A stretch of 57,079 bases of DNA, filler included, from Sluysia triapertura (lineage: Eukaryota): NCBI GenBank assembly GCA_046118255.1. It is 4 parts of 4 records of this genome, joined end to end, with 100 filler letters (N's around TTAATTAATTAA, not from the genome) between each part and the next. Parts side by side here need not be neighbours in the genome. Positions count along the whole stretch, not along the records: positions 44,820 to 57,079 come from JBJNIA010124856.1; 3 more parts are not named here. One strand, 5' to 3'. Every line of letters begins with the position of its first letter. Position 1 is the first letter of the stretch. The notes under the pieces are model-generated. The model was not told where the DNA came from, did no database searches, and was given only the letters and a program-made list of their open reading frames with translations. Below are positions 15,263-57,079 of the stretch, in pieces. A program made the position numbers and the translations under genes.

Positions 15263-15372
15263 TGATACTTAACCCCTTAACTCGAGCGAAGTAAACCCTC
15301 TGAAATGAGAACACTCGAGTTAATTCGAGCGTCAACACTTTTCGTATTACTTTAATAATCACAATCGTTTAA

Positions 15373-20420: not shown

Positions 20421-20469
20421 CAATATTTGAAGACTTTCGAAACCAATGTTTTAATCCAAGTTATAATTA

Positions 20470-20720
20470 TGTATTTATTATATTATTGTTTAAATGTTAT
20501 TTTTTACATGTTAACAGATTTTGCTAATTTATTAAATTTATTAATTATGTTATTGTTTTTAATTGTTTCAGGCCTTAAGTCTATGTTGATAAAGACAAAA
20601 ATAATATTTTCAAATTGTTATAATTCAGTCGTAATTTATTTAAAATAATTTTTAATATAAACAAAAATAAAAATAATTCTAAATTTATTAAATTAAAATA
20701 TACATTGCCCTCCACACAAG
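20470..20720 (+). repeat. Unclassified dispersed repeat, family D
   Basis: Reverse-complement copy at 32210-32490. Both end in ..TGCCCTCCACACA. Confidence 0.8.
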
Positions 20721-21654: not shown

Positions 21655-22250
21655 TGTGGTAGCCAACCCATTATCATAATAAACTTTATTAAAAATTTAT
21701 TTAAATATATTCCACATTTCCAAAAATTCATCCAAAATAATTCATCTTTCATCTCTCAACAATTCAATTTCAACCACATTTGAAGTTAACCATCAAATAT
21801 CTTCAAACTAATTCAAACACCCCAAATTCATAATCAGCATCATTTAATTTTCAATAACACATAAAGACATCACTACTTAAACATATCAAGAAAATAAATC
21901 ACATTCTTAACATTCTATAACTATTCTTGCAAACATACTAAAACTTACACCATAACTTACCTTTTTATTCTCGAAATCATTCTCTTTTAACATACTTTTA
22001 ACTCACGATCTACTAACACCTAAATAACATCTCCACCCGTTAAAAGCATTTAAACACATAACCCCATAACATTAAACCACAATAAAATCGTAAACCATTA
22101 AATCACATAAATTTATCTAAAATATTTTGTCTTTTACCCCAAAACAATCACGATCACATTCGAGAGTAATCAACAAACATCTTCAAAAACATCCAAACAT
22201 TATAAATTCACTTTCAACACATCCTCATATTTAACATCATAAATTCACAT
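21655..22250 (+). repeat. G-poor cassette leader (second subfamily)
   Basis: Starts TGTGGTAGCCAACC. Shares the TTAAACCACAA..CATTAAAT..CTAAAATATT..CAAAACAA block with 45818-46200. Confidence 0.75.
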
Positions 22251-22608
22251 TTTTTTTCTATTATTCTATTTCAATAGATTTAAATATGTTAAGAATATCT
22301 TTAAGAACATAAAAGAAAGTTTATGCTTAATTCAAAAGATAAAAACTTTGTGTTTTCAAGACAGTAATAAAAATAGCACCTTCGTTATTATTATTATTAT
22401 CACCATTTTTATCTTCATCTTTGTCACTGTATCTATTCTATTTCTAAATTCTAAATATGTCGAGAAAATAAATAAAAAAGGAAGAAATGTTTTGTGATTT
22501 AAGAGAAATGTAGAAATTTATGTTTTGTTATTATTATTATTATCATTTTTATCATTGTCATTTTATTTTGTTAATTCTATTTTTAATTCTGAATTAAATT
22601 AGTAATTA

Positions 22609-22765
22609 CCACCATCAATGTTGACATTACTAATCACTATGTATAAATGCATGTCAACATTGATGATGGCTCACCTCTCATTCACTTGGCAATAAACATT
22701 ATTAATGGTCGTCCAACCAGAGTTATCATCACTATTTTATATTTCTCTGGTTGGACGGCAAATCA
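22609..22765 (+). promoter_or_regulatory. Double inverted-repeat module, copy 3
   Basis: Stem 1 matches 18/19: CCACCATCAATGTTGACAT (22609) / ATGTCAACATTGATGATGG (22651-22669). Stem 2 is a perfect 13 bp: CGTCCAACCAGAG (22710) / CTCTGGTTGGACG (22745-22757). Confidence 0.75.
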
Positions 22766-22952
22766 GATGCATAACACACTTACTTTTCCTAAATATTGGC
22801 AGCAAAGTATGATCACATTTTCATAATAATTACTAATTGGCAGCAATTTTTCATACACATTTTCGTAAAAATTACATTAATATTATTGGCAGTGTTATCA
22901 TTATTAGACTTTAACTACAAGTATCTGACATTGCTAAAAAATTTTGTAAAAA

Positions 22953-23610
22953 TTGAAAATTAAAGATAATATAGACTTATTGATGTTATCTCCTAAATCT
23001 AAAAGTTACGGGAAACTTGATTCTGAAAATAAATCCATAAACGACAATGATGTTCTTAAAGAGCATAAAGATAATGGCGATGATGAAAAAAATTATAAAG
23101 ATGATGATCATAAAGTTGAAGACCATAAAGAAAATGGCAACGAGGTTAAACACTATAAAGATAATGATTACCAATCTAACTATTATAAAGATCATGACCA
23201 TAAAGTTAAAGAGTATAAAGATAATGACGATGATGTAAAAGAGTATAAAGATGATCATAAAGTTGAACATTATAATGATGGTGTCAATGAGATCAAACAC
23301 TATAAAGATGATGATTACCAATCTAACTATTATAAAGATTGACCATAAAGTTAAAGATTATAAAGATAATGACGAGGATGCAAAAGGCTATAAAGATGGT
23401 GATTATAAAGTTAAACGTAATAGTAAATGATGTGAATGATATGAATTGCTTTATTATGAAGGTTGTAAGACATGTAGTGTAAGAAAGGCTGAGAAATGAT
23501 TATGTAATTTAACTGGGAATTTTGTTAATTATGCCATGAGTTATATGTTTATTACATGAGTTGGGCCACCGCAGAGGGTTTGCACTAGTGGCCGATCAAA
23601 TATGTAATTT
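22953..23610 (+). pseudogene. Asp/Lys/His/Tyr tandem-repeat ORF downstream of module copy 3, frameshifted
   Basis: About 30-bp units encoding YKD(D/N/H)D(H/D)xxxx. The repeat continues past the stop at 23342 after an apparent 2-nt deletion (GAT-TGAC vs GATCATGAC). Confidence 0.55.
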
Positions 23611-26165
23611 TTAAACTTTGTTTTTTAACTAATTAACCCTTGGCAATACCCCAATGAATTTAATTAATTTAATGATAAATATAAATATATTTTCAAATGA
23701 AAATGAATTTAAATATTTTAAACATCTTTATTATGATTAATACAAGAGATTTTCATATATGGTTCATTTTAACATACTATTTGTACTTGTAACAATGTGC
23801 TGAAATTTTCAGCGCACTTCACATACAAACTTTTACAGTTTCTGTATGTTGTTTTTAACTTTTTAACATAATATCTTGCACGTTTCTTAGACAAATTTAT
23901 TCGCTCAAGTTTATGTTTTACATCTAAACACTTCATGACAAATCCAATTATATTGAGAATTAAAATGCTTAAGGATGTAACTACAAATAGCTAGTGGCAA
24001 TTTTGCCGAAATACTCAAATAAACAAGTTATTGTATATCTGTGATCTTCAAGGGATCCCGCATGAACATTTAATTAATATACAAATATTAATCCACCAAA
24101 GCAACAAGTTAATGTCTTATTATAATTATTACATCGCTACATCATTTATTTATGTATATTTCCATTTTGGCCAATAATATTTACTCTAGAAAGCGTTTTC
24201 CTATGTGAAAGATGACAACCAAGTTGTCAATCATGAAACTGTATTAGTAATGGCGATGTGAACTCAATCCTAAAACATAACAATATTAAAGAAATTCATA
24301 AACTAACTAACACCACTTTTAAAAACTCAAAAAATTACATAACGAAGATATTAACTTAGATGACAATGTAGAGATAATAAAGCTAATGAGTATTAGAATA
24401 ACAGCTGCTCTTCAATCTGAATCCAGTTTTTAAAACCAATTTTGCATAATCAATTATTTAGCCAATTTTTAAATCACCTGAAGAAAGTGATAACACAAAT
24501 GAATTTGGAAATCAATAACTAAAGAAAAACAATTTTCAAATTTTACTGCATTACGCATTAAAGAATTTTTACAAAATTGTTTTTTATGTACATTTAAAAT
24601 TATCTTTCATAAGCTTATCAATTTATTTAATTTTTATTTTCTTTAGTTTAGCGAAATGGCTTGTTCGTGATTTAAATGAAATTAATTTTATGCAGTATAT
24701 TTTTATTAATTATTCTAGTGTTCTCGTCATTAAGATTGTTTTTTCTGCTAGTTTAGTAAGTTGGTCTAAAGCAAGTGAGTTTTCTACATCATCAAGATGA
24801 TGTTTTATTATTTCCATAGGATCTTCAACCTTACCAGAAATATTCGTAATTTGAGACATATTCGAATTGGATGATATGACTACAATTAAAGATATAAATA
24901 ACAAAGTGTGGATTTTCAAAAGATTGAAAGCTGTATTATCGAGTCAGATAGTGATGTTAAAATAGGTGCTGCAATGTATGTGTGTACTAATAAAAGTGAT
25001 AATAATGGTTGAAGAATGATAAAAATAAAGATATGTAAAGATTTTGATAGGATGTACTAATAGGCGTGGCATGAAATTAATAAGGTGTAACGTATTTAAA
25101 GATATGCAAGATGAGGTGATATAAATATAAGGTTATTAAATATTTGATTAGGAAGAATATCATAAGTAATGATAATTTAATAGGATTTGATATGTAAATT
25201 AAAACATGAAATAATACTGGTCATGGTATGAAAGCTGTGAATTATTAGATTGTGAAAATTTTTTAATGTATAACACATTTAATGCGGTATGTGATAGTCT
25301 GAATTCCCGCATATTATGTTGAAATTATGTAAATTAAAAGTGATAATAATTACAATTCTTCTTTGTAATTTTTTATTTACTCATAATTGCAGTTGTTGCT
25401 TGAAATTCCACATGATGTGAATTCATGTCATCTGTCCTCAATGTGTTAAAAATAACGAATGATGTAATGTTTTCTTATGAGATTAAACAGAAAGTATTTT
25501 ATACTAATAATTTTATTAAATCAGATTTTAAACTCTAGATAAATTCCTTAATTTATCATAATTTCTTCGAAACTCCATCTCTGAATCCTCTTAAAACTGA
25601 ACGCTTTGTCATAACTACCACTGAATTACAATGCAATACTTTTCTACATTATTTTCCTTTTTTTATCGAGCATAACTTACTACTCCGATTATAAACAACT
25701 TCTCATGTTTATTCCTGCTTAAATCTTAGAGCCTTTTGTGCTTTCCGTTCCATGATTATCAAGGAATGAATGTGCAATTACGTAAAAGTTACGCAATTAG
25801 AGAATCTAAAGTTGTACAATTAGTAATATAGGGCTCGTGAATTATGAATTATAATCGATTGAATAAATATTATTTAACCTTTTTTCACGTGTGAGTGTTA
25901 AGGGATTAATGAAAAGATATATTCTGAATATATGTGAAACAGTTACTTCATTAAAACAAATTTACTTTAAATAATTTAAATAAAATTTCATAGATATTTG
26001 GAAATTTATTTTAACGATGATGCAATTGTTTAATATCTAATTAAATAATTATTTATGCACTGTTTTTTCGAAATTACATATTGTTATTATTATGTATATA
26101 TTTATATATTTATTATTTTATAATGAACACTTGTTATAAGTGACTGTTGAATCTATAATATTTAG

Positions 26166-26674
26166 GTATAAAATATGCTTGGTTTACCTTACGCAAAAAA
26201 TATCATCATTTAGTATCAAAAAAGTCATTTATTCATTGGTTTGTCGGTGAAGGTTTAGAAGAAAGTGATTTTATTGAAGCTAACGAAGACATCCAGGTAC
26301 TAGAAAAAGATTATGAAGAACTAAGTGAAAGTACAGAAAATACAGAGGAAACTTCAACACCGAAAAAAGTTAAGCAGAGTAAAAATCAAAATAATTGTGC
26401 TACTACTAATATCGCTTCTGGTTTAAGTTCAAATAATGGTGCAGGTAAAACTGAAGTAATTCAAAGTACGAAAAATATTTCTAATGAAACTGTTGTGGTA
26501 GAAAATTCCAATACTACTTCGTATTGTCAACAACTCTACGATGATATTGTTACAACACTTGATCATAAAATACAAAATACAAATACAAAAATGTACCGTA
26601 AGTTACAGAAATTGCAACATAAACTAAATCAAATCAATAAAATTTACAATTGCAATACCACAACAACCTCTGAA
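26166..26674 (+). CDS. Exon encoding a divergent alpha-tubulin C-terminus with a long extension (no upstream exons found; may be a pseudogene)
   Basis: TTTAG|GT ATA... reads IKYAWFTLRKKYHHLVSKKSFIHWFVGEGLEESDFIEANEDIQVLEKDYEEL, versus alpha-tubulin [49 protein letters not shown]. Donor GAA|GTAAGT at 26675. Confidence 0.75.
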
Positions 26675-27019
26675 GTAAGTTTAAGTTACATTTATTGCTA
26701 ATTATATTAATCCTTTTGTTTTATGTAGAAGAGCATATTTTATGTTTTACTAATAAACGGGTTCGTCCATAATGGAATACAGGCAAAATTTAGCTTACTT
26801 ATACAATTTCATTTTAATTTTCTACTTATATGTAGATGGTCTTTGTGTGATGATATAAATTTGGGTAATATTTTAGAAGTTAGAATTGTGCATTGGTGTT
26901 GATGGGATTGCACAATTACGGAATAGTAAATGAGTAAGGAATATTTGGAACTAAAAATGTAGTAAGAATTCATACAAAAACATGGGTAGAGCATAATAAA
27001 ACATTTAAAGATGAAGGCA

Positions 27020-27950
27020 TCTATGATCATTCTGGATTTTGAGGAATGATTTGGAGATGAAACCCTCGAGGAGGCATTTGAGTATCCTTGAGCTCTTGAG
27101 CCCTGGGTCCATTTGAGACTTCATCAACTTATAAGAATCTTTAAGAAATTTTAGTAGCATTATAAGGTGTTTGAAATATTTGAGAAGTAAAGCTATTAAC
27201 CTAATAATTAACGTAAATAAGTATAAAAAGGAATCAAGGAATTAAAGCTTTTAGAATCCCCCGAGTGGCTTATAAAGTACCAAACAACTTTAACCCTTTC
27301 AATTCTACGGGGATACATAAGTCCCAGAGAATGTTCAAAAATTTCAAAATCCGAAATTATGTAAACATGTTCCTTTACTTATTTACAGCACATTTAATTC
27401 AGTTATACAGAAATATCTTCACTGGCCAAAAGTCGTATTGAAAGGGTTAAATATAATAAGTCAAAAATGGATTAGTTAATTAAAATCTTAATTAATTTAA
27501 TTAAGGAAAAGTACGTTTTTTTGAATAACGTTTGAATTCGGAATACTATGTATGTTTTACAAAGATATTTTTGAAAATATGGTTTGACTGAGCTTTAATA
27601 TTGAATTAAGTCAAATTTTAATTAATTCTCAATTATGAAATGTTGAATTTTTAATATTTGGATTGATTAAAAGAGAATGAATGATTGCTGTGAAAGAGGA
27701 GAATCTGGAGGTAAGTGGTTTGTTTAAGAATAAAAACCTTAAACATTTTTCATTAGCAAATTCGGTGTGAAATATTGAAAATCAATTAAACTCTAAAAAC
27801 TAAAGTTAAATTCATTTTTTATGTACGTCGACAGTACCGATGGTTATTTTAATGTCTTAAGCAATATTTTACTTAAGTAAAATACATCGAGCAGAATAAA
27901 AGAAAAGTAATGGCTTATCGTTGATCATTTTTGTGTTTTGTACCTGTTCA
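27020..27950 (-). repeat. Dispersed repeat segment B, interrupted by a MITE
   Basis: Reverse complement aligns with 17440-18400. Confidence 0.7.
27294..27446. mobile_element. piggyBac-type MITE (153 bp)
   Basis: TTAA-CCCTTTCAAT ... ATTGAAAGGG-TTAA. Confidence 0.8.
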
Positions 27951-30059
27951 ACTTTTGCTAAGTTTAAAACAATTATAATATTAATGTGATATGGGTCCGC
28001 CTGCGTAATACGATTTATCTTACGAAAAGGACGTATCCACAGGTAATGTCAAGTCTGCGAAAGAGTAGCTTAATCTTTGGAGTGATGAAACGAAGGTCAA
28101 TATATTAACTTTTAGTTTTATTTCTCTTTATAAATTAATTCCCACGTTAAAATTAATCGTTTGAAAGAATCTATCTCTTTTATTAAGTTGTTTAACAATT
28201 TAAATTAAAGCTATCTCTTCAAATATGTAACTTTAAGGGTGTAACAATTGTAAGTAGCTTTATAATTCTTTATAGTTGTCAAAAAACACTGATCTTTTCT
28301 TAATTTTACAGTAGTTTATCTTTCCAAAGAAAAATCAATTTAGAAACAGTAAAATTATTTATTCAGTAGTCAACAATAATATGATAATTTTTTTAGAAAG
28401 TCGATTCAAATAAAAAGAAATAACAAAATAATAATATAATGATAATGACACATAATGCAAAAATATTACAAATTTATAATTCAGATTTTAATATGGATTT
28501 TGATCCAGGCTAATGCTTAGATTTTAAATTGAAGGGTATTTTAAGTCTGATTTTAATGCAAGATATCTATGCACAAATTTCTAACAAGAATGAGCTTACT
28601 TATTGGTATAATACATTAAAAAACCTCCAATTTGTGGATATTCCAATAATTTGATTAAGATAAAATCCTGTTTGAACGAATTCTTCCTTTGAAAATTATA
28701 ATCTCGATTAGTTACTTTACTTCTATTGTCAGCTATTTATATGATTTCAAAGGTCGAATGATTGGCAGATAAGTAATTGTTTAATATTTATAAATAAATA
28801 ATGATTAATTATTATTTTCGTAATTTATAAATTCGTAATAAGTCCACATAAATGATGACTGATTATTATTTTCATAATTTAATAAGTTCACATAAATAAT
28901 GACTAATTTTTATAAAAGTGCGGAATAAATTTGATTTTTACTAATTTTAATTAATTTACAGATTTAATTAATTACAAAAATTCAAAATTTCAGTTTTTTA
29001 ATTTACAAATTTGATTTTATAATTTTATAGTATTTACAATATTAATTTATTAATTTACAAATTTAATTACAAAAATTCTTATACATTTTACAAATTTACA
29101 CTTCTATATAGTATTTACATACCTAATAAAGTCTAATTTACCGTGCCATGAAATTATCGAAGCTGTTATTGTTGGTTTAAGTCTCAAAGGAGTTTCTAAT
29201 GAACTTACAAATTATTAGTATGATAATTACACGAATTTAAAATGTAGTTAAAATTCTCACATTTTCTAAAGTCGATTTAATGAAGCTTAAAATTTAAAAA
29301 ATTAAATTAAGTCGAAAATTTTTCATTTATAGTGTGAAAATTTAATTTTACTTTAACCTTGGCTTTGTATCTATGTGTTAATGTGAGTCCTCTATGATAT
29401 TGGGTTTACACACTTAAGGGCCAATTCATAGATGTCAGCGTAAAAAGGATGTTGAAAGCCTTATGGAGGTAATCATAGCAAATATTCAAATGGTTATAAT
29501 TCAGATCCGCTATTTAGCGAGAAATTTATATGAGATCTAAAATGATACAATGTGTACAAATGTTTAATTTATTATAACAAACTTGTAATTTATTATGGTT
29601 GTAAATTACTTTAAGGGTATTTTGCAACTATATAAATTAATTAACTATCGTTAAGATTGTCTTAAGACTAACTAATACCAAAGAAGGTAAATACGTATTA
29701 ATATTACAACATATGGAATAAAATTTGAATAATTTATTAACAAAAGTAATAAGGTTGTGTATTACAATAATAATCTTATAATAGTTTATTTACAAACACA
29801 AAAATAGTAAGAAAAATAGTAACGTTATAGTGGTATAATATTCGAATAACAAAATCGGAAATGTTACAACGTTCAATATTACAGTATTATAAGATAAATG
29901 TTAATGTTAAAATTACGATATTTCATATTATAATACTTAGGAAAAAGTAAGTGTGATAATCAGTAATGTTGCAGCGTGAACTCAATTTGTAATCACAATA
30001 TAATATTAATGTTTATAATTCGTGAATAATAAAAAAATTAAATATTATTGTTCAACAAT

Positions 30060-32209: not shown

Positions 32210-32490
32210 TTATAAGTGTGTGGAGGGCAGTGCGTAATTTAATTCAATAAATTCTGAAATAATTCTATTTTTACTTACATGTAAGATTACTTTAAAATAA
32301 TAAATTACGGTTAAATTAACATAATTTAAACATATTATTTTTTTCTTTATAAACATAGGCTTAATGCCTGAAACAATTAAAAACAAACACGTAATTATTA
32401 AATTTAATAAACTGACAAAATCTGTAAACATAAAAATATAAACGTTTATACAATAGTATAATAAATATAGAGATAAAAATTGAATAAAAT
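32210..32490 (-). repeat. Dispersed repeat family D
   Basis: Copy of 20470-20720. Confidence 0.8.
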
Positions 32491-32494: not shown

Positions 32495-32594
32495 NNNNNN
32501 NNNNNNNNNNNNNNNNNNNNNNNNNNNNNNNNNNNNNNTTAATTAATTAANNNNNNNNNNNNNNNNNNNNNNNNNNNNNNNNNNNNNNNNNNNN
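32495..32594. other. Artificial contig linker
   Basis: N44-TTAATTAATTAA-N44. Confidence 0.95.
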
Positions 32595-32619
32595 CAAAGT
32601 TGGGCAATCCCAACAATAA

Positions 32620-32925
32620 CAATTAATTTATTTCTCAAATATGTTAAAGACTTTAAATACTAAAGGAAGTCAAATGCTTGTCGATGTTCCAAGAGTACTT
32701 AAAGGTTACTAAGGTCTTAAATGATCTAATGGTTCACAAGTTCAAAGGTGCCTTGATGATTCGAAAGGTTTTCCAAGTCCATCTCAAGTTTCCATAAAGT
32801 CTCAAAACCTTATATAGGTCTTTGGAACTCCAAGGTATTCTTTAGCTGTTAACATTATTATATATGTTTTCACTTTCATGATTCTTATTCCAAACATGTA
32901 TATCATGTTCAATCCATCATCTTGT
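32620..32925 (+). repeat. Dispersed repeat segment B (3' part)
   Basis: Aligns with 18130-18400. Confidence 0.75.
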
Positions 32926-33013
32926 ATAAGTTTTTCCTTCATTTATAGTCCTATACATTTCTAACTCATCTATTTATTAACAGTTTAGCAATCCCTATAA
33001 ATATATATATATA

Positions 33014-36430: not shown

Positions 36431-37482
36431 ACAGAAAACATCAAATAATATGTGGACATCAGATAGTAGGTGTAACAAATTGTAGGTGGAGTTTAAAAAA
36501 TTTTTTACACCTACTATTTTAACAGTAAATTGTTTTTGTTTAATAATACAGGTCCTATTAATACAATTTTGAATTAGTTCTTGTCATCAACCCCACTACC
36601 ATGACGAAAAGAACATTCAGCATAGCTTTCAAGTCACAGTATTTATGGAGACAGGCAACACGGCCTATTCCGCAGCGAAGCACTTCTCTATTCGAGACAA
36701 AGTCGAGTATGCGGATACAGTATTTAAACAATGGTTCAATAATAAGGAAAGAATTCAAAAACAACAAAAGAGTTTCGGTTGCAGGTAGAAAGCGTATAGT
36801 GTGGGATTTATGCAGAGCCCACATATCCGAAAAGGTTAAAGATCACTGTGGAAGGAGAAATATTCATTTGATAGTTATTCCCGACGGTCTCACATCATAT
36901 CTTCAAGCGAGCGATATTGGAGTGAATAAGGAATTTAAGGATAAAGTTTTTGAAAAGATAAACCAGTGGAAGAACTCGAATTCCGTTCAATACACAAGAG
37001 TCGGTAATCCCAGACCGCCCGAACATGACGTGGTGAATTCCTGGATTAGTATTGCTTGGAATGTACTATCCATCAACATCATTCAAAGATCAATCAATGC
37101 AGCAGGATTTTCTGCAAATTATTCTGATTGGCATATAGCAAACCATGATATATATGGTGAAGCTTCCTTTGAAAAGTATCTATCAGAAGTTAACGAAGAC
37201 AATAACCACGCAACAACGAAGAAATGCTCGATGATGATGAGTTTGTTATAATTGATGAATAAATGTCATTGTATTTTTTAATCTTCTATATAAAAGCTTC
37301 TACCTAAGATTTTATTTGTTTAAGAATAATTTTAGTTTTTCAAATTCTTGTTGAATACAACTTTATTTATTGCACTTTTTTATGAAAGCATCGAATAATA
37401 GGTATAATCAAATAATAGGTGCATTTTTAAAAATACATCTATTATTTAAATAGAATGACACCTACTATTTGATGTTTTCCGT
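36431..37482 (+). mobile_element. pogo-family DNA transposon, internally deleted (about 1.05 kb)
   Basis: TIRs ACAGAAAACATCAAATAATATGTG / revcomp ACGGAAAACATCAAATAGTAGGTG, with TA flanks. Subterminal TAGGTG/CACCTA repeats. Confidence 0.88.
36601..37251 (+). CDS. Truncated pogo/DDE_1 transposase
   Basis: IVWDLCRAH...VIPDGLTSYLQASDIGVNKEFK matches the DDE_1 pattern LxxDxxxxH...IPxGxTxxLQPxDxxVNxxFK. The HTH region and first catalytic D appear to be missing. Confidence 0.8.
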   Translation: MTKRTFSIAFKSQYLWRQATRPIPQRSTSLFETKSSMRIQYLNNGSIIRKEFKNNKRVSVAGRKRIVWDLCRAHISEKVKDHCGRRNIHLIVIPDGLTSYLQASDIGVNKEFKDKVFEKINQWKNSNSVQYTRVGNPRPPEHDVVNSWISIAWNVLSINIIQRSINAAGFSANYSDWHIANHDIYGEASFEKYLSEVNEDNNHATTKKCSMMMSLL

Positions 37483-38904
37483 TAGTATTTGAAAGTTTTA
37501 TGAAATTTGGACTTATGTGCAAGAAATAAATCGTTGAACAGGATAAATTTATTAAGTATGTTCTATTTGAAAACATTATTTATTGTTTATTGACACTTTC
37601 ATATTTTTGAGGAAGTATATAATATTATAATATTATAATATTATAATACAGAATAATAATCCTGTAAATAATTTTTCAAATATAAAAGATAATATACTAT
37701 ACTAATTTGTATATCGTTAATATCTAAAATGAAATATTTATTTAAAAGCATTTAAGGTATATTATTCATTGTAATAATTAATGAATATAAAATATTTTGT
37801 CTTAAATATTTCGTAATATTACACTTATTTGAAACCTATCATTGTGTCGACTGCATAAGTTGTAATTTTTTTCGTATTTTTTATTATTCTTAGTTAGGAC
37901 TTTCATAACATAAGCATTTTCATTTTAATTCTACTCTTGATTTTATTGTACACTTTAAGATAAGATTTCTTAGATTGTAAAATTATTCTTACTAATTGAT
38001 TCAATAGTAATTGTAATTTTCTCTTATTCATTCACGGACTTATTATAATCTGTATTAATCGCATTCAACGATTGGCAATATTATTATTTTTTTATCATCA
38101 TTATTATTATTATTTTGAATATCATTATTATTATTATTATTATCTTCACTATTATTAATTTCATTATTTGTTAATTATTAGCTACTGATAATAATTATTA
38201 GTTATTGGCTAATAATTAACAAAATTATTAAATAAAATTATTATTATTATTAAATAATAAATAATAATAAAATAATATATTAATTAAATAACATGTTGCC
38301 TAAGCATATTCAAGAATGGAACGATACAAAAATGTGTTATAAAACTGATCTAAATCTCATTAGTTTTGCAGCTTTTCTTTGCCTAATTATAAATATTATT
38401 AAATATCATTTTGGAAGAGAAGATATTATATTCAAACCTTATGAAGGACTAAAATATATTTTGATCAAACTTAGTATTATAGAAATTACTGAAGATATTT
38501 TTTCGTTACAAGCTGATAATACTAGTTTGTTTTTATCATTGTTGATACCGTTTCAATTAGTTATAATCTTATTTCGTATGCAATTTAATAATTGGTTTTC
38601 ACTCTGTTTCAATTTAATGCTACTTGTGCAATACCAATAATAAAAAATAATTTAGACAATTGTTTAATAATAAATTTAATATAAAGTGAAAAGTCCTCCA
38701 AGAGGCTTAATTAATTATTGGCATCAATCGCGATCATCATCAGCTTGGTCTAATTCACAAACATCGAACACAAGTATAAGTAGTAATTATTATGTTTTAG
38801 GACTGTTTTATAATATAATCTTTGTTTTTTATTGTTGGTATTGTCCAACTGTGAATCTGGAGATGAACGAAAACATATAAAATCATAAAATGAAAAAAAA
38901 ACTG

Positions 38905-39510
38905 ATACAAAGTGATGAATTGAACATGATAAGCATTGTTGAAATAAGAATCATGAAAGAGAAAATATTTATAATAATCTTAACAGCTAAATAATATATT
39001 AAGGTTTCAAGGACCTATATAGGGTTTGAGACCTTATGGAAGCTTGAGATGGACTTGAAAAACCTTTAGAAGCATTAAAGTACCTTTGAACTTTTGTGAC
39101 GTTGGCCTAAAATATTTAAATAACATAATTACCATTAATTTTCTGGATATTATTAGTGTCCGATGCGTCACTCCTGGTTGTTTTGTCTTAATTGGATTGT
39201 AATTTCTTTGATTTTATTGTAAACGCTATTGTTATTTTTGTCGTTTTAGTGATTCTCATCATTTAGTAAAGATATTTATTGATAATAAATTATGTTACGA
39301 ATTTTTGTTTAATAGTACATTATTGTCTTGGCTTTGATTTTGATAGTCAAGAACTTAAATGTGCGATATTAGTTATTAATATTATAAAAGAGGATTACCA
39401 CAAAATCATAGTTTACATTTTGTTTTCTTAAATTATTAAGATTCTTTTAAGCTAATTAAGATAATATTGAGTTATCATAACTAATAAATTTTAAAGACGC
39501 AACAGATAAA
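38905..39510 (-). repeat. Dispersed repeat segments C and B joined
   Basis: 39510-39100 matches segment C and 39095-38905 matches the end of segment B, in the same order as at 16.5-18.4 kb. Confidence 0.7.
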
Positions 39511-44719: not shown

Positions 44720-44819
44720 NNNNNNNNNNNNNNNNNNNNNNNNNNNNNNNNNNNNNNNNNNNNTTAATTAATTAANNNNNNNNNNNNNNNNNNNNNNNNN
44801 NNNNNNNNNNNNNNNNNNN
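44720..44819. other. Artificial contig linker
   Basis: N44-TTAATTAATTAA-N44. Confidence 0.95.
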
Positions 44820-45026
44820 ATAGTTCATGATAGTTAGATGGGATGGTCGTGTTTACTTTTGAATGAGTTTAGTAGTTCGTTTAATAGTTTGTGTATATGT
44901 GTAGCGTTTTTAAGCGATGGATTGTGATGAACTATATGTGATGAGTTATGATGAATATTATGTGATGAATTATGGTGAATACTATATGACGAGTTCCCTA
45001 CAATAAGCAAATAGTAATTATTTTCA

Positions 45027-45480
45027 ATGTTTGAACTGGAATATGTACACACATATTTCAAAATGCGTTTCAATGGTAGATGGATTCGAGCTATTATTGA
45101 TAACAGAGCTACCACATCTGTAATAAATTATAATTTTTTAACTACATGGGAACTTCTGTTTATGGATCCGCCACAAGCAATACTTTATAATGTACCAATA
45201 AATATGAATGGATAAATGGGTAAATGATTATATTTACGTTTGGGGAGATTCACCTTTTAATTTAATAATTGGTTTAGATATACTTGATAAGTTGGATGAC
45301 GTAGTTATACATAGTAAGTATGGTCTTATAAAATTTCCGCAATGTGCACAATTGCTACTTCCTCAGGTTGTTGTTCTATATCTTAACAATGACATTTCTC
45401 CGATTCATATTCCAACACCTTGTCCAGTATTACCACCTGGTCAGTTATGGATATATCATCTACTGACTCATGAATGTTAG
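45027..45480 (+). pseudogene. Degenerate retropepsin (LTR-retrotransposon-type aspartic protease), frameshifted
   Basis: MRFNGRWIRAIIDNRATTSVIN (ALIDSGA-type motif, mutated) and, in the next frame, FNLIIGLDILDKL (ILGxDFL motif). Confidence 0.75.
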
Positions 45481-46557
45481 CTGAAAAAGTGAAAGTAATT
45501 ATAAGATTAAGAAATCATCCTGGACACCGTTACTAGTATTAATGATTCTGTTTTAAACTCTAAATGGTATTTTTAAATCAATAGATATCGTAGAGGATGA
45601 GGAATATAGAAATATATGCAGCAATTAATTTAATGGAAAAGAAAAGTATATCGATTACAAATATTTACAATGAATATTTGGAAACAAAGTTTAGTTCAAA
45701 TTTGATATTTACTGCATTTACTTAGAACCTCAATTTATTGGTAAACCACATCATGTAGATAAAATTCCACGTTATCTGCAATATGCATATAGACCAATGC
45801 TAATAGCATTCGCATTGTGTGGTGGTCAACCTTTCACATTTTATAAAAATCCCTTTTCACAATATTACAAAACCATATAAACACTCAAAATATACAATTC
45901 ATATTCAAAAGTCAATATAAAACAATATCAAATCAAACCAACACATTATACATAAAACCTTATCCTTAAACATTTTAACATTCTCACGTTTATCTCCTCT
46001 ACATTCACCAAAACAATTCATCTACTAAAGTCATTTTATATCCACAGTCTCATAATATTTAAACCACAACAGCATTCTAAATCATTAAATTACATTAAAA
46101 AGTTACCTAAAATATTGTATCTCTCATCTCAAAACAACTCAAGCATAATCATATTCCAAAGTATTTAGACCATAATCACTTACATGTTAATAACATATCA
46201 GCTAGAAACATTATCTCAACATTAGAACGAGGTATCATTAAGACTGGTAAGTTAATCAGAAAAACCAAAGATACAAGAAAATATCATGTTCCTTCTTTAC
46301 CTATAACTTTTACATATGTTAAAAATGTTAAGACATAATAGAAAGATCGTGTTTATTAAAAGAGATATAAGAATTTCTGTGATTTTGGATAATAATAATG
46401 TTAACATTTTTTAATTTTTATTATTTTTATTTACAATTAAAAATATAAATTTGTTTTTAAACTACATTGATTTACAATGACAATGGTTTAGTGATAGTGG
46501 TTTACACATCAATCATATGGTTCATCTCTCAATTAATTAGTTCTCGATCTTTATTGT

Positions 46558-46619
46558 TGGTCGTCCAATCAGAGTTATTCTAATCATTAATTTTGTACGT
46601 TTCTCTGGTTGGACGGCCA
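46558..46619 (+). promoter_or_regulatory. Inverted-repeat module, copy 4 (stem 2; stem 1 degenerate at about 46460-46515)
   Basis: TGGTCGTCCAATCAGAG / CTCTGGTTGGACGGCCA. Confidence 0.75.
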
Positions 46620-46799
46620 GAGAAAATTTCTAATAAAATTTTTAGAAAATTTTTATTAGTAACAGCTGTTAAAAATATAAAGAATTTTTCTTACACAATT
46701 ATCACTGGTTAGACGATAAAAATTAATTATACTAATAAAAGAAACGAAACAAAAAAAGATTCAGATTATAAAATTAAAGAAAACGAAGAAATCGTTTAC

Positions 46800-47779
46800 A
46801 TGAGTTATTCAATTGATTACAGTAGACCTTTAGATTCACTGAAATTAACTGTAATTAGAAATTCTACTGTTAATCATGATAATGATGTAACTAAAAGATT
46901 GAAAAGTTATTTCACAAATGATGATGATGATAAAAATATCAACGAGATTAATAAGGAAGATGATGAAGAGAACGACGACGATGGCGATGGAAATATCAAT
47001 AAAAATAATAATGAAGATGATGGAGAAGATGAAGATTATGATCAAGAAAATTTTAAAAGTGATTTGGAAACTAATGCGAATAATAATAATAATTATAATA
47101 GGAATCAATTCACACCATCAAGTTCCTCACAAAACACCTTGGTCGATATACGTTTAAAGAATGTCATTCATGAACAAGATATTAAATTATATGATTATAG
47201 ACTATGCGCAGAAAAGATGCATGAAATATCATTACAAAGATAAAGCAATTTGATGATGATAAAATTACTGAGAAAACTGTTAGCATGTGAAATCTTATCC
47301 AACGGAAGGATCCAGCTATTAATTCTGTTGGCACGCAAAATAACAAAACATATTCAATACTATGTACTTATAATGCTAACCTGTATGGAGTATGTTCGAG
47401 ATTCAGATTTACGTGTACACGTGCACATACAATCAGTCAGATGCAGGAATTAGTATCAAACAACGATCAACAGCTAACTCATAGAAACAGGATGCATCAA
47501 TTATTAATGTCATTATATGACAATTCAACCGATGAAAAATTCGATTCGAAGACCAAATTGAATAGTCAAACCAGCAGTATGAATAGGGTTAAAGTAAAAT
47601 TTTATAAATTATACCACAGTAACTTATTGGTTATATTTTTCACTTCAGATTCTAGAATTTGTTTAAATGTAGCATGGCACGCTTTGGAAAAACTTGATTT
47701 AGTAAATATAATGACATTTTTTAGTAATAAATTTAAAAAATGTGTTGTTCTTATTATATTGTATATTGCCCTCAATTAA
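46800..47779 (+). pseudogene. Acidic N-terminus plus CCCH zinc-finger ORF, fragmented
   Basis: D/E/N-rich ORF 46800..47243. In the frame of ORF 47441, 47363-47428 reads CTYNANLYGVCSRFRFTCTRAH (C-x9-C-x6-C-x3-H). Confidence 0.65.
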
Positions 47780-47955
47780 TATGTTATGCAAATAATAATT
47801 TGAGTATTTTTTATAATTTTTGTAACTTTATTGTCCTAATTAACGGAAACTTATTAGTAAAATTCCTGATAAATAATAAATTTTCACTAAATTGTATTAT
47901 ACTATAATCATTTTTTTACCATTTTTAATTTAATTTCGTTATTTAATCAGTGATT

Positions 47956-48091
47956 ACTACTATCAATGGTGGCCTTGTTAGTTGCCATTGATAGTGGTTG
48001 GCTTTTCAACGTAAAAATAATTTGTGTTATTACTGGTTGTCCAATCAGAATGGCTCTCTTCATTATTTTTATCACTCTGGTTGGCCAGCTA
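47956..48091 (+). promoter_or_regulatory. Double inverted-repeat module, copy 5
   Basis: Stem 1: ACTACTATCAATGG (47956) / CCATTGATAGTGGT (47985-47998). Stem 2: TGGTTGTCCAATCAGAATG (48034) / CACTCTGGTTGGCCAGCTA (48073-48091). Confidence 0.75.
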
Positions 48092-48306
48092 ATAGAAATT
48101 CACTGTGAGGACATATACGTGTGCAAAAATTTATACATTATCAATTTAATGGGAGTCAAAAAATGTTTGCAAAGTGAGTAATGTCTACTGCTGAGTAAAT
48201 ATAGTAGTATTTGTGTTTATCAACAAAATAATCTGGCTGTTAAAGTTTATTTTTCTTATCATAAAAGCGCAAATTATGAATTATCTATAATCATATCGTA
48301 AATACA

Positions 48307-49611
48307 ATGGATTTTCTAGATTTAATTATAGACAAACATTTCTTAAAGCGAAAATCAACTATAGATCTGAGATTGCAAATAATTAAACCTACAAATACGA
48401 ATATAACGACTTTAACAATTGAATTTCAAGCTACCAATACATTCAACACAAGTACTTTGTTAAAATCATGTAAGTATAATCGAGAATATCATGTTCAGTA
48501 ACGACAATAATGTTTATATATTAGTACTTTAGTAAAAATTAATGAATCTTTTCTAATTTATTATATTTATTTACCTACACTCTAATCCTATGTTCGATGC
48601 CAATGTCCCAGGAGAATTTATTAATCAAAATTTAGAGCAGACTATTACCTCTATAAATTGCTATGAAAATATATTTGATGTTATAAAATGTGAAATTTGC
48701 ATTTCGAGAACAATACGAACTTAAGCATTGAAAACGTTATCAGGATTTTCTCTCGTATTTATTTAATTCTAAAAGCTAAAAGATCAAATGGAAACTTGAA
48801 AGAGCATGCCTTTCATGAAATTACAATGTCGATTCGTGCAGAACTATTTGAAAATTATAAAGATGAATTTGAGATGATCCAAGGGATGTTGAGTTTCCGA
48901 ATGGAAACAGGTGCAGAGCTCGCACCAATGATTGTTTGTATAATTTACAGTTATTCCGTCACTGGTAAAGGAATACTTATGGCCGATATACGATTGAAAG
49001 AGGATAATCTACTAAACACTAATATCATCAAAATGTTTATAACAAGATCAATGAATACAGGCTTAAATTTAATTTCAGACGAACTTCTACTAATAAATAT
49101 ATCCCAATTATATATTGAATATAAAGAAAAATGTAAAGAAGATTCTAAAAAAATTTCTGTATGTCATTATACTATTCCTTCTAAGTGTCATCGTTTTAGC
49201 CATATATCGAAGAGTATAATATGTATTCCATCAGTTCCTAGCAATTCAATGTTTCGTAAATAGTCCAATAAAGCATTAATTACAAGTCAACGCATTAGAA
49301 CTGCATTTTGCCCATATAGAAGTAACCTAAATGGTAGGTATACGAAATTCGGAATCAATTGTTTATGTGCGCAAACGATGAATCAGCTGGTGAATCATGG
49401 AGCCGAATGTACTTATTGCATGGATCACTTGTTCAGACTTACGAACTTGATGAATTGTATTGAAATAACAACTTCGAAAATATATAACAAAGTTAATTAT
49501 ACTGATTATAATAAAGTAATTTCCTTTTATTATCACACCAAAAACAATTTGATTTTCATTTTCTTTTTTGATAGCGAAACGTGGATGACCAAGAGCACCG
49601 AAGACATTTAA
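48307..49611 (+). pseudogene. Fragmented ORF with a degenerate CCCH finger, downstream of module copy 5
   Basis: ORFs 48307, 48697 and 49378. The last two are in frame across one TAG. 49309-49374 reads CPYRSNLNGRYTKFGINCLCAQ. AATAAA near 49649. Confidence 0.6.
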
Positions 49612-50349
49612 AGTTTTAAATATCCATATTTTTAAATTTTATATTTTGAATAAAAATTTTAGTTTATAAATTTTCTTTGTTCAATCATAAACTTTTAAAC
49701 TCAATTTTATATTTAAGATCGTTGAACATTAATTTAAGAATGGAAATTTTAGAATTTAAGATAATAAAAGGTTGCATTATCTTAAATCTATTAACCTATT
49801 TTCGTATAAATTAAAACCATATTTAGTAACAAAACATTTTTATCCACAACAAATGTCAAAGCTGTTATTGTCGGTCTGATTCTCAAATAAGTTTGGATGA
49901 TTTGTTTGAGACTAGGAATTGACTGGATGATGAGAGAGTATAAAATAAAAATTTCTAAATTTTTACAACACAGTAACAATGACAATTATGCAATTTCCAG
50001 TAAAGATCCATGCATATGGTAATGTTCTTGTTTATTTTTATTTTTGTTATTTTATTATTTTAAAATTAAAATAAGATAATTAATTGATTTTCTTTTAACT
50101 TTATTTTTGATTTTATTTTAATATAATTTTAATATAAGTTAATTTTGTGCTACTTTTGTTGTAAGTTTTTTATTTTATTTTCAGCCATTTTTAGAGTATT
50201 TTTGTGAGGAACTCTAAACAATTTTTGTAAAAGATTAAATTTGATTTTCAGCCATTTTCGAACTAGATTTGTGTGAAACACCCTACGCAATTTATTTTAT
50301 CGAAACATTAAATATTTCTACTTTAAATATTAATGTTAAGTTTTAGAAA

Positions 50350-50800
50350 GGATCTCTGCCCAAAAATTTTTATTATAATTGTGATTGTTCTTAGTTACGT
50401 TAACTAAAAATATTTAAGTAGAATAATTATTATTAACTTTCTAGATATTGATATTGTTAGTGTTTGTTGTGTCACTCCTGGTTTTTCAGTTAGATCGGAG
50501 TATTTTTAATATTATTATAAACGCTATAGTTAATTTTGTCATTTTAGTTATTTTTGGTATTGTTTGATGGAAAGTCATACTAATAACAATAAATTCTAAT
50601 TTGTTTTTTGTTTAATGGTAAATTATTGCCTTATTTTTGATTTGATTTTAAGAGCTTAATTTTGAGGAATAGTTATTAATATTAAGAGAATTACTGCAAA
50701 ATTACACTTGCTATAGTGACTACTTAAATTTTTAAGATTCTTTTAAGTTAATCAAGATAATATTGAGTTATCATAACTAATAATATTTAAAGACGCAGCA
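50350..50800 (-). repeat. Dispersed repeat segment C
   Basis: GTCACTCCTGGTT core and AAGATAATATTGAGTTATCATAACTAATAA shared with 39100-39510. Confidence 0.75.
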
Positions 50801-51240
50801 GTAATTCGAATTTAAATTTAATTTTACAGTCTTAAAATTTTCGATATTTGTTACCATTACGCCCAATTGCCATTATAACTTCAACGCAATCTAACAAAAA
50901 AACTTCACATTAACGAACATGTATAAAACACAAACACGATCTTTACAGCACGTCTCACTTTAACAATTATGCACAATTGTATAATCGTCATTATGAACAT
51001 TGTTGCCATTATTCTATTTTCTCTTATTATTGTTACTGCTCTATTTATGATTTTTATATTTTCTACTCGTGTATGTACGTATTAATAACAACTCTTGTCA
51101 TAATCTTTAACAAAATCAATCAATAAACAATCAAAATAAAAATGTGACACTAAAAAACAACAATTAATTTAATTGAATTATAATCAGAATCAGAATTTTT
51201 AAATTCAATTATCATAACTAGAAGTAACTGCCAATAGCAT

Positions 51241-53329: not shown

Positions 53330-54770
53330 TTATTTGTAACTAACATTCAACTTATATAAACTCGATAATGCATTAATAATTTGTTTACAATAAAGCTCGA
53401 CCATCCTGTTTTTTGTCATTGCATCGTCATCGTCAGGATCGGTTTCAATATTGAATCTAACTAACATGTGACCATAAAAGACAACTGTAATTTTGTGATC
53501 AGAATTGGTTCCATAAGGAGTACATAGGTAACATAGTGATTCATACTTGAGAAACTGTGGCATTTCACATTGATCATTTTGCCGATTATCAAAATTACTC
53601 GACTAAGTTCTGAGAAATCCCCTACTTAAGTACTAATATTGTCTGCAATGCTATGTTTGAATTCCTTCATTATTATGTCGACCGATATTCTATGTTTCAC
53701 ATCTAAATGTAAGTTGTTGAAATAAGCAGTGATGTTGTTATGTAATTTCTGACTCAATTTGGCTACTTCAGGTCGGATTAACACTTTTATATTAGTTTTA
53801 TTCACCGCGAAAATTTCGTGACTAGCTTCCAGAGTTTCATCTTTAGACTAGATGACGTTATTAAATATTTGATCTATGTGAATGCTCGGACAAAAAGATA
53901 AAACTACTCTGATACGATTACCAATCAAACTATTATGGTAATCTAAACAGATAGAAGTCATAACCGAGTGTAAAATTTCACTTAAGTAATCAGGTAGTGT
54001 TGTTTTCATGATTTCTTCTTCCATCATTCCGTCGTACTTATCCATATGACTTCGATTCTCTTTAATAATTGCTTTACTTTTTATATGGGTAGATGCAGAT
54101 ATTTTAGAAGTCTTATAAACCTTTGGACTGACAGTAACAATTTCTTTCGCCATCGAAATGATAAGTTGAATAGGCGATTGATTTGTAAAAATTGCAATAA
54201 AATTTGATTCAGAAACATTACCAAATTCATAATAGCTTTGATCATTAACAATTACCGACACGATTAAATGCAATTTAAATCTACTTATATTTAACCTTCT
54301 TTCTGTTGCTGATTTTTTACTAAATATTCTTGAATTCCTTGATAAATATCAATTAAATTGACAATCATTTTGTTGTCACCATCATAAATATCATCTGCTG
54401 AAATACAAGACAACAATACAATTAAAATTTGTTGAAATAATACTTCGATAAGCCTATTGATATTAAGTATACTAGAAGATTTATCATTGAATTATAGATG
54501 AATATCATTGAGCAAAGAATTAAAAATTTGTTTATGAATTCGAATTAATAACTTATCTCCTACATTCTTTAAATCACTTATACAAGTATACTTTTCTTCA
54601 TCTTTGAAACAATTATCTGATAAAATTAATAAAATGAGTCGTACTGTTGTGTTGCAACACAGACTTGAACAACATATTCGATAAAAATACGTAATTATTT
54701 TTTGAGCACCGACTATAATTTTTGTAGTAATATTGTCCAATCCAAATAAGTTTAATTTTAGTATTGATAT
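53330..54770 (-). pseudogene. Fragmented orphan ORF downstream of module copy 6
   Basis: Chain of minus-strand ORFs (54492-54794, 53848-54273, 53330-53563) broken by stops. No confident domain. Confidence 0.45.
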
Positions 54771-54773
54771 AAC

Positions 54774-54937
54774 ATTGATTGGACGTCCGATCAATTTCTA
54801 TATTTAGGGAGCCACATAATTATATAGGCACGTATGCAATTATGATGTAACACTGATCATATTGAATGTAATTAACTGTCATCAGTCGACAGTCAAGTGA
54901 CATGCTGGATAATTTATCAACTGTCGACTGGTGACAG
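54774..54937 (-). promoter_or_regulatory. Inverted-repeat module, copy 6 (minus strand)
   Basis: Stem 1 matches 17/18: CTGTCATCAGTCGACAGT (54876) / ACTGTCGACTGGTGACAG (54920-54937). The minus strand then reads TGATCGGACGTCCAATCA (cf. TGATTGGATGACCAATCA in copy 1). A TAT-rich spacer lies upstream at 54960-55060. Confidence 0.65.
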
Positions 54938-55319
54938 AGTAATATAATTACATAAAATTTTAGCCAAATGATAATGACCATATTACTGGTCGTAGTAATG
55001 AAAATAACAGTAATGATAATAAAATGATAAAATAAGAATGTTTTTAATGCTAATAATAGTACAATTTGACAAAATACCAATTAAAATGTGACCAGATTAC
55101 CGAACTTTATCTCTGTATAACTTGGTGTCTAACTAAATGTACCTAAATAATTCTGAGTGTTGTGATAATGATATGTTAAAGGACATTATCATGATCCTTA
55201 TTTTAACATCGCTACAATTAAATAAATTTATTATTTAATAGGTTTATTCGAATTTAGTAATATTAAAAATGTTTGTTTAACAAAATTATGTTCTTTGCAC
55301 ATTAAATTAATTTTTTACT

Positions 55320-56909
55320 TTATTCCTTAACAAAGAAAATAGAATAGCAACAGCTGAAACTATTTATTGTATACAAGTATTTAATGTTTGAATTTGAATT
55401 TTGATAAAAATTATCCTTCTTCCGAATATGCCTCGTCATTCTACAAAATTTGGATATTGTAAATATGTAAGTGATTTTATAATAAATTAAATCAAAACTT
55501 GATATTACATTAAGGTCCTGTTGATACTTGATGTCCGCCAACAAGTGTTGATTCTAAGAATATGGTCGGATGATGAATATAGGTTGGATGATGAACCAAA
55601 GAGAGCAATAGTTTCAAAAGCATCATGACTGTAGATACAATCTCCGCCATATCTGTAACATTGTCCATTTTGTAATCTTTCGTATAGACACAAGCCATAT
55701 TTATAATATTTGAATTGATGACCATAAGGTTTTACGTTTTCAGATGATAACATGTCATCACCATAATAATGTTTTAAATTTACAATTCTTGTTTTCGCTT
55801 TTGTCTTAATATTCATTAATGACATACTTTTATTTGTCGTAAATCGATATCGATGGGAACATGTATAGGTTCATCCTTTTCTATCTCGATATAATTTAAA
55901 ATATTAAGATAATTGGTATAGAATCGTTTCATTTGCAAGTTACGAGATATCTAACTAAACATGTTTCTAACTAATGATATCATTTTATTACGTATGAATC
56001 AACATCGATGAGGAACAGTATACTTTTATCTATTTTTATTAAGATATGAAATGAATTATTAATTTGGTTGGTATCTAATCGTTTTATTTGAAAGTCATGG
56101 GATATCTCGATAAATTTTCTTGTAACATCTTGTTTTGCATTTTGTTTGTCTATTAAGTTTAGCATACAATTTAGCATACAACTGATTTCGATAAGTTTCA
56201 CAAATTTCAATTCTATAATCGGTTCTTTAACAAATTTAAATGCTAATTGATCAAACTGTTCCATTAAGCAAAATTTTAACAAAATATTATCCAAAAGTTC
56301 ATGTTTAGATAGCATTGTTTCCATAATAATGACTTTATGCGAGAATAATCTTAAAATTTAATATAAGTTTCTAGATATTCTGTTAAAAGATAATTAACTA
56401 ATAAACTCAATTATGGGGTTGTTGTATGTGTTTGTTTGAAAATTAAAATGATTTAGAATCTTTAGAAGAGTCATTGAGGGCGTATCATTATAAAACAACC
56501 GAACGTGTTGACGAATTTTAGACTTATTAACATAATGAGTGAAATTTAAAGACTTGAGTACTTTAAAGTTACACCATGAAAAAATTGGATCATTTGCATT
56601 CTTAAATAATATAAGTTTATTTTGAATAATTATATGCTCGTCGATACAACACATTTCATATTGAGAAAGTTTAATTAAAATTTTGTAATTTTTGTATTTT
56701 AATTCTTTTATAATTGTGATGTATTTAATTTCTTGAAAACTCTTATAAAACTTTTGCCTTTTGTAGAAATTATTAATTTTTTTAGATCTTTCGTTATTTA
56801 ATCTTAAAATCTTTAGGCTTTTCTTATTATTACATTGAGGAGATTTATGAACATTATACGAACAAAGAGAAATAAAAGATTTAAATTTAATATCTATTAA
56901 TCTACACAA
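55320..56909 (-). pseudogene. Fragmented ORF chain containing an intact CCCH zinc finger
   Basis: ORF 55505..55825 has YKYGLCLYERLQNGQCYRYGGDCIYSH (C-x9-C-x6-C-x3-H, 55625-55690). Same-strand ORFs 56394-56909 and 55980-56324 lie upstream. Confidence 0.6.
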
Positions 56910-57079
56910 AATTTGTATTATACTAAATAATGTTTTTAATATTATTGATAGATGGCACGTCTCTTGCTCCTTGGATCCATTTTCATTCTTTAAAAAGATA
57001 AGTTTTCTAAAAAAGATAATATAATGATAATAATTGTTTATAAAAATATAAATAAACTTTGTTATAAAATTTTTACTTT

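Follow-up and report, generated by a model that had tools for sequence, protein, structure and literature searches.

Solitary long terminal repeats (solo LTRs) of Gypsy (Metaviridae) elements are among the described systems closest to the unit analysed here, a 4,034-bp mobile unit with TGT...ACA ends at positions 45818-49851 (+) of a 57,079-nt stretch of joined contigs from Sluysia triapertura (hereafter the window). As a general rule, TG...CA ends come with target site duplications (TSDs) of 4-6 bp (PMC12440569). Solo LTRs without TSD are the product of inter-element recombination and accounted for 552 of 7,247 elements in pear (PMC4668562). Gypsy solo LTRs, especially these, share with the unit TG...CA ends, a short imperfect inverted repeat, a single copy, the lack of an enzyme, and promoter-like and poly(A)-like signals, and unmatched flanks are expected after inter-element recombination (PMC4668562). 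The unit differs from them in its length of 4 kb, in two separately headed open reading frame (ORF) cassettes and in a cargo that changes between copies; no parent element was seen. The multi-kb LTR size class is shared with Burro/GYPSM1 of planarians and Ogre of plants (LTRs of 1.9-6.5 kb), as are element-borne regulatory accessory domains and an AT-rich invertebrate host (PMC6431247). In Burro, however, the accessory domains are fused in a polyprotein of ~4,900 aa (PMC6431247), whereas the unit has small ORFs, each with its own palindromic module, and no gag-pol. A giant Gypsy element of the Burro type was rejected, as a gag-accessory-env-pol polyprotein is incompatible with a longest stop-free frame of 189 aa in the unit.

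Other described elements are similar in their ends or in their cargo. Ginger1 and Ginger2/Tdd have TGTNR termini, as does the unit (TGTGG left; TGTTG right, reverse strand), a comparable size of 2.6-7 kb, and the 4-bp TSD that had also been claimed for the unit (PMC2836005). They are further characterized by terminal inverted repeats (TIRs) of 40-270 bp, a CCGG/CCGT or RTATAY target and an integrase-like transposase (PMC2836005), all three of which are missing from the unit. Membership in Ginger, an option raised in an earlier note on this DNA, was therefore rejected on TIR and target. IS481EU elements likewise have TGT...ACA ends, TIRs below 50 bp, 4-bp TSDs in some families and non-autonomous members; the accessible text describes them from parabasalids only, with a single transposase ORF and no cassette cargo (PMC10045372). 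Neither host nor enzyme fits, since the window genes point to an animal and the unit has no IS481-like transposase. Pack-TIRs (PMC8277862), large retrotransposon derivatives (LARDs; PMC6431247) and LTR-mediated retrocopies (PMC5131818) are also non-autonomous, carry host-like gene pieces and can amplify. Their fragments lie between TIRs or two LTRs and depend on a terminal promoter (PMC8277862, PMC6431247, PMC5131818); the unit, unlike Pack-TIRs and LTR retrocopies, has an internal module that recurs in front of every cargo ORF, and homologue searches found no parent for its cargo.

The unit is a bounded, multi-copy, modular and enzyme-less mobile element whose flanks are not one target. We interpret it as an LTR-like gene carrier, delivered by an integrase and now decayed, and probably as a large solo LTR that arose by recombination between two insertions; we put the probability of this reading at roughly 0.45. 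From left to right it consists of a leader, two successive pairs of module and ORF, and an AT-rich tail:

45818-49851 (+), whole unit, TGT...ACA (letters, contig cuts, end comparison)
45818-45829 (+), left terminus TGTGGTGGTCAA; left-flank contigs depart at 45817
45818-46340 (+), C/A-rich leader (GC skew -0.52), no ORF of at least 100 aa; sequence similarity to other leaders
46450-46625 (+), module 1, two palindromes, the second a stem at 46558-46619 with CCAATCAGAG...CTCTGGTTGG
46800-47779 (+), cassette 1 ORF: acidic D/E/N-rich N-terminal part, CCCH finger (from 47363), shared C-terminal motif; frame broken near 47240
47940-48100 (+), module 2, two palindromes, the second with CCAATCAGA...TCTGGTTGG
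48307-49611 (+), cassette 2 ORF remnants: degenerate CCCH finger (from 49309), C-terminal motif paralogous to that of cassette 1
49612-49851 (+), AT-rich tail, 17% GC, AATAAA at 49649 and 49763
49840-49851 (+), right terminus TTATCCACAACA, which matches the inverted left end at 9/12

The termini at 45818 and 49851 and the adjacent 4-mers, ATTG (45814-45817) on the left and AATG (49852-49855) on the right, agree in letters and coordinates with the earlier note. Judged by their letters, the ends look like substrates of retroviral-type integrases (TGT...ACA with an imperfect inverted repeat of ~12 bp). The inverted match is 9/12 and then drops to 10/20 and 21/40 in AT-rich DNA, i.e., to background level. 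Sites that match the left end in at least 9 of 12 letters and end in ACA occur at 19 of 113,474 positions, and the chance of finding one within 5 bp of the right-flank cut is ~0.0008.

Contigs from a public run (X1) were placed on 44830-51200 at 80% likeness (9,174 placed). The run contains 0.54 of the sampled words and is possibly the source sample, so it checks repeat structure and does not stand for an independent individual; contig depth is not equivalent to copy number. Among the 6 of 1,255 loose-end rows listed, 21 contigs track the left flank up to 45817 and then diverge, and 65 enter the right flank at 49854 out of other sequence, which identifies both flanks as repeats that break off where the unit begins and ends. 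The right junction is crossed by a contig with zero differences (49526-49883); related contigs cover 49742 and 49775, with their ends outside the loose-end rows listed. No contig bridges the left junction or spans the unit among the 8 of 9,405 pieces listed. With no listed piece across the unit, six N runs in the window and 0.54 of the words in the run, the unmatched flanks described below could also come from an assembly artefact in which two near-identical insertions were collapsed and the left flank of one was joined to the right flank of the other. Yet the zero-difference contig depth in the unit (12.6 and 10) is near that of the left flank (8.7 and 8.5) and not double it, and related contigs differ by 10-20% (same pieces listed). 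We regard an artefact as very unlikely, and it would leave the nature of the element unchanged.

The flanks X and Y do not form one continuous target:

45018-45817 (+), left flank X, cut at ATTG: a multi-copy repeat whose retropepsin-like ORF is broken (weak Pfam/PDB matches, contigs)
49852-50801 (+), right flank Y, cut at 49852-49854: the 3' portion of a repeat of very high abundance (similarity, contigs)
16669-18402 (-), 38888-39505 and 29120-29195, other copies of repeat Y (window similarity)
29120-29195 (+), stretch of repeat Y without interruption, earlier claimed as an empty site (similarity, upstream tests)

The likeness of X to retropepsins is weak (Pfam: Asp_protease E 0.012, RVP E 0.093, neither reaching the cut-off; PDB, DDI1-like, E 0.38), and its first retropepsin-like piece gave no homologue. 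Contigs that diverge at 45817 continue in letters that are unlike the right flank and have no convincing match in the window, and those entering the right flank come from letters unlike the left flank but matching the copy of Y at 17453. No joint from 45817 to 49852 was found among the 15 of 75 joints listed. One contig links Y (50137) with X (45123), too thin a connection to make X and Y one element. The earlier note had named flanks from unrelated repeats as evidence that would count against it, and this is what we observed.

An empty-site paralogue had been proposed at 29153. This match falls entirely inside repeat Y. In 60-bp tests, the sequence upstream of 29153 is shared with that upstream of the Y copy at 17427 (p 0.006), and the left flank resembles neither the former (p 0.39) nor the latter (p 0.69). 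With 200 bp, the left flank gave p 0.009 against the 29153 upstream region, in a gappy, AT-rich alignment, and p 0.29 against the 17427 copy. As 29153 shares its upstream region with a copy of Y and not with the left flank, we rejected it as an empty site and consider it a piece of Y. The proposed 4-bp TSD did not hold either: ATTG and AATG match at only three of four positions (chance 0.084), and the flanks continue into different sequence. Pieces of repeat Y lie at 16669-18402 (-), 38888-39505, 32618-32944 and 27457-27945; Y seems to be a TGT...ACA element of ~1.8 kb itself, for which no clean TSD was visible by eye at the window copies.

The 4-mers at the cuts bear on another explanation. 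In the run contigs, Y reads ATTG at the cut, identical in 4/4 positions to the left 4-mer (chance 0.0064), while two window copies of Y read ATTA and the unit's right side AATG. The unit might be a DNA transposon of the cut-and-paste type that is non-autonomous, has very short TIRs, is mobilised in trans by a DDE enzyme related to IS481/IS3 and packs cassettes in the manner of Pack-TIRs. ATTG would then be a true duplication; after a later transposase cut at one end, a flanking deletion would have been repaired on the 4-bp ATTG microhomology to another repeat. This accounts for a breakpoint exactly at the terminus and for ATTG on both sides, and it explains the 4-mer better than recombination does. 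It also agrees with the lack of an LTR pair or of a primer-binding site (PBS) and polypurine tract (PPT) at the unit, and with IS481EU, for which TGT...ACA ends, TIRs mostly below 50 bp and 4-bp TSDs are described (PMC10045372). Against it, a TIR of 9/12 is very short and far from the 40-270 bp of Ginger, IS481EU is reported from parabasalids only in the accessible text (PMC10045372), and no matching transposase was found in the unit. The sole DDE match in the window is the remnant of a pogo-type DDE_1 transposase at 36562-37251 (Pfam E 3e-9). Pogo-type DDE_1 enzymes target TA. Altogether we find a DNA transposon somewhat unlikely, although it is the chief competitor of the solo-LTR reading.

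Searches for LTR-retrotransposon features gave the following. The first and last 900 bp of the unit contain no direct repeat, only a 50-column AT-rich match, and the leader profile has no match at the right end; hence there is no LTR pair. The 30 bp before the left end are not a purine tract, repeat Y follows directly after the right end, and neither PBS nor PPT was found beside the unit, where the earlier note had suggested looking for them. For gag-pol, which the note had proposed to seek in other copies, a domain search of the window detected no gag, reverse transcriptase (RT) or integrase. The absence of a recognisable transposase, which the note had claimed, was confirmed by domain searches of the unit. 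A full-length Gypsy element, a LARD and a terminal-repeat retrotransposon in miniature (TRIM) were rejected, as a direct-repeat LTR pair, PBS, PPT and gag-pol are all lacking at the unit.

The left end is shared by five leaders in the window, starting at 3951, 4817, 13212, 21655 and 45818, each with TGTRG and a C/A-rich sequence. The first four lie at three other loci:

3951-7795 (+), one or more related units: leader 3951, interrupted by leader 4817, then module 5860-6055, chromo-domain ORF, half module 6654-6705, ORFs 6913-7795
13212-15262 (+), related unit: leader, module 14035-14215, unannotated ORFs 14464-15262
21655-23430 (+), related unit: leader, module 22595-22770, ORF with acidic/basic repeats

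The leader copies named in the earlier note were found, as were its two tandem cassettes. A pattern for the left end gave 5 matches vs 0.62 expected in the window, an excess that is partly circular because the pattern was drawn from these same copies. Plain sequence similarity also speaks for a family, with 46035-46137 matching 22049-22147 (E 3e-11) and 45994-46167 matching 13267-13439 (E 3e-9), at an overall identity among leaders of 48-77%; module 22595-22770 is 82% identical to module 1 over 67 bp. The 4-mers preceding the five leaders are TTAT, AGAA, AAAG, GTGG and ATTG, which do not fit the CCGG/CCGT or RTATAY targets of Ginger. Interruption of leader 3951-4816 by the leader at 4817 suggests an insertion of the family into itself; the remainder of the outer copy was not found. 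A coding remnant was rejected as the origin of the leader, since all 30 frames of the five leaders contain 6-35 stops and no ORF is shared. The leader-start pattern hit 21 metagenome loci, none of which matched the leader or module profiles. Two other C/A-rich tracts were noted. One, at 44820-45003 (-), starts TGTAGGG, has the highest contig depth in the aligned region and is cut by the assembly gap; it is probably the end of a separate, very abundant LTR-like repeat. The other, ~1.9 kb at 23473-25411 (-), starts TGTGG, has a C/A-rich 5' part and ends CACTACA, with unmatched flanks and no module match.

The leader alone could be the LTR or mobile end, with the cassettes as the accessory region of a much larger Burro/Ogre-like element; the unit would then be a truncated part of it, CCACAACA at 49851 would not be the terminus of the family, and Y would have been joined later. 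Among the 40 of 1,087 rows listed, variant sites of the leader occur in 25-72 contigs and those of cassette 1 in 6, in favour of such an element. A longer minus-strand cassette array continues past the window end, no second right end was found in the window, and giant Gypsy elements with accessory ORFs are described in planarians (PMC6431247). However, the 9/12 inverted match lies exactly at the cut of Y (chance 0.0008), the leaders pass into the module without a CA end or PBS common to the copies, and gag, RT and integrase gave no match in the window. A larger element is, in our view, distinctly unlikely.

Six modules are present in the window (at 5860, 14035, 22595, 46450, 47940 and 54945, the last on the minus strand), four of them behind a leader and two behind another cassette, along with a half module at 6654. 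Every module folds as two long stems (z -3.3 to -6.8). The second stem has the CCAAT-containing consensus CCAAYCAGA...TCTGRTTGG, both-sided changes in 5 of 16 pairs and pairing in 89.6% of 96 cells; its covariation score was reached by none of 500 shuffles, and slid controls fell to 20-44% paired. The CCAAT box is a promoter element, and an ATG frame of at least 45 aa begins 106-477 bp downstream of all six modules. The module agrees more with a palindrome in the DNA than with an RNA structure, and arm-to-arm correction could be another source of co-varying arms. A known RNA family or a hammerhead was rejected: Rfam gave no match at the gathering score in the window, and the CTGATGA of some modules is part of stem 1. 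In the window, a covariance model of the module recovered only its six source copies (next best E 0.037), and module patterns had no match in viral contigs or metagenomes.

The cargo behind the modules varies and comprises CCCH zinc fingers, an MSL3/MRG chromo domain, acidic repeats and unannotated ORFs. Neither this change of cargo between copies nor the co-varying two-palindrome module is part of the earlier note, whose zinc-finger cargo we can confirm: both cassettes of the unit contain C-x9-C-x6-C-x3-H, in degenerate form in cassette 2, and a third such finger occurs at 55690 (-) (zf-CCCH_UNK E 1.2e-5, under cut-off). The C-terminal parts of the two cassettes are paralogous (26% over 96 aa, E 4e-5). 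Neither ORF is intact in this copy; that of cassette 2 is interrupted between ~48500 and 48700 and again, by a stop codon, at 49261. Cassette 1 found CCCH-bearing clusters in the Atlas (best 0.90) and cassette 2 only leads below 0.9; no homologue turned up for cassette 2 among 441 candidates or for the C-terminal part of cassette 1 among 1.84 billion representatives, and the single-sequence fold of cassette 2 was unusable (pLDDT 31.7). Related contigs are present over the full length of the unit: variant sites of cassette 2 occur in 3-36 contigs, and the tail is covered by 13 at 49742 and 4 at 49775 (same rows listed as for the leader). The MSL3/MRG domain (PF22732 E 2e-14) lies near 6153-6426 in a stand-alone 90-aa ORF that follows a module and encodes a chromo barrel; we regard it as a candidate chromatin-reader decoy. 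More cassettes are found near the window edge:

53848-55870 (-), cassette array to the window edge: CCCH ORF 55870-55505, module 54945-54725, ORFs 54797-53848

This array (53848-57079, -) is open at the edge and has a 227-aa frame without Pfam match and a 136-bp tandem duplication (55817-56107).

Domains of the CCCH and MSL3 chromo types are also ordinary in host proteins, and one could ask whether there is a mobile unit at all, or whether dispersed host genes of one family, alike in their upstream region, happen to lie between two repeats here. Homologue searches of the cassette ORFs found no parent gene for the host-type domains (PF22732, CCCH). The sharp cuts of two repeats at TGT and ACA, as seen in the contigs, largely refute a host family. 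It is also contradicted by the nesting of one leader in another at 4817, by cargo of unrelated kinds behind a common leader and by broken ORFs amid many related contigs, which leaves this explanation extremely unlikely.

The solo-LTR interpretation draws on ends that lie at independent cuts of the flanking repeats, a left end shared by five copies and the lack of a long TIR and of an LTR pair, together with folding modules, paralogous cassettes, differing cargo and poly(A)-like signals before the right end. Copies would be delivered in trans by a Gypsy-type integrase encoded elsewhere. With its inverted CCAAT-like boxes, each module may act inside the element as a promoter or as a palindrome that binds factors, in which case each small ORF would be expressed on its own, and cassettes may be gained, duplicated or swapped through recombination between modules. 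The cargo, predicted from its domains to comprise RNA-binding CCCH fingers and a chromo barrel, may serve the element against host silencing. The locus itself would be a recombinant of two insertions, one in X and one in Y, with the intervening DNA lost and the flanks unmatched; the likeness of ATTG and AATG would then be due to chance or a mild target preference. Of the proposal in the earlier note, an integrase-mobilised unit or giant solo LTR, a bounded, multi-copy, enzyme-less mobile element with TG...CA ends and zinc-finger ORFs is supported, and "giant solo LTR" is still the best single label; the 4-bp TSD as proof of one clean insertion is not supported.

Several observations weigh against our interpretation. 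No complete element, with gag-pol and a pair of such LTRs, was found in the window. The right end is known from a single copy; none of the other four leaders is followed within 12 kb by a convincing end with TSD, and the window shows no enrichment of the consensus end pattern (4 matches vs 2.1 expected). The exact ATTG in the Y contigs is poorly explained by two random insertions. Since no listed contig spans the unit, the assembly may be chimeric here. As to the module, six related sequences can exceed shuffles in covariation without selection, and unrelated windows reach similar folding energies; the antisense strand folds better in four of six modules, so there is no RNA strand preference. 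Third codon positions in the ORFs are weakly favoured, with 5 of the 8 variant sites whose frame is readable (p 0.088; a count that excludes 7 rows at 48443-48611, where the frame is unclear). The promoter role of the module and the function of the cargo are putative, as they are predicted from sequence.

The window (~25% GC) also contains a rhodopsin-type G-protein-coupled receptor gene and a UCH-L5 gene (34600-35710, -) with introns of ~40-50 bp, in addition to the DDE_1 remnant. The best match of UCH-L5 is 62% identical and named arthropod matches reach 53-55% (62 proteins of 397 candidates); the host is thus most likely a strongly diverged animal, from a poorly sampled lineage. As the protein collection holds no close relative, its repeats are unexplored. 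N runs around a 12-bp spacer with stops in all frames (18703-18802, 32495-32594, 44720-44819) mark joined contigs, so adjacency across them is not assured. Other repeats include a 114-bp element (15369-15482) resembling a miniature inverted-repeat transposable element, with perfect 25-bp inverted ends beginning TTAACCCC, and a 79% repeat pair (20450-20718 and 32217-32489, -) that ends TGTGTGGAGGGCA on the minus strand and shares a hydrophobic frame, i.e., a small repeat family. A frame at 26159-26701 begins like what we take to be a tubulin C-terminus and runs into a T/N/S-rich extension; it has no Pfam match.

For the analysis of such elements, the locus is a caution that a "TSD" of three in four letters and a one-sided "empty site" can mislead. 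Animal transposons capture gene pieces, usually as fragments run from a terminal promoter. A bolder and improbable reading of the family is that of an animal cassette stack, in which integrase-type ends would enclose an expandable row of self-contained expression units, the two-palindrome module would serve as promoter and recombination point in an integron-like logic, and the cargo would form a chromatin- and RNA-binding anti-silencing kit. The literature searched, a partial coverage with few subscription journals and without Repbase, contains no description of such a stack. If this reading is true, a palindromic head for every cargo ORF and the exchange of cargo behind a common end would represent a distinct route to small regulatory genes, and the family would offer a direct test of whether the cargo counters silencing.

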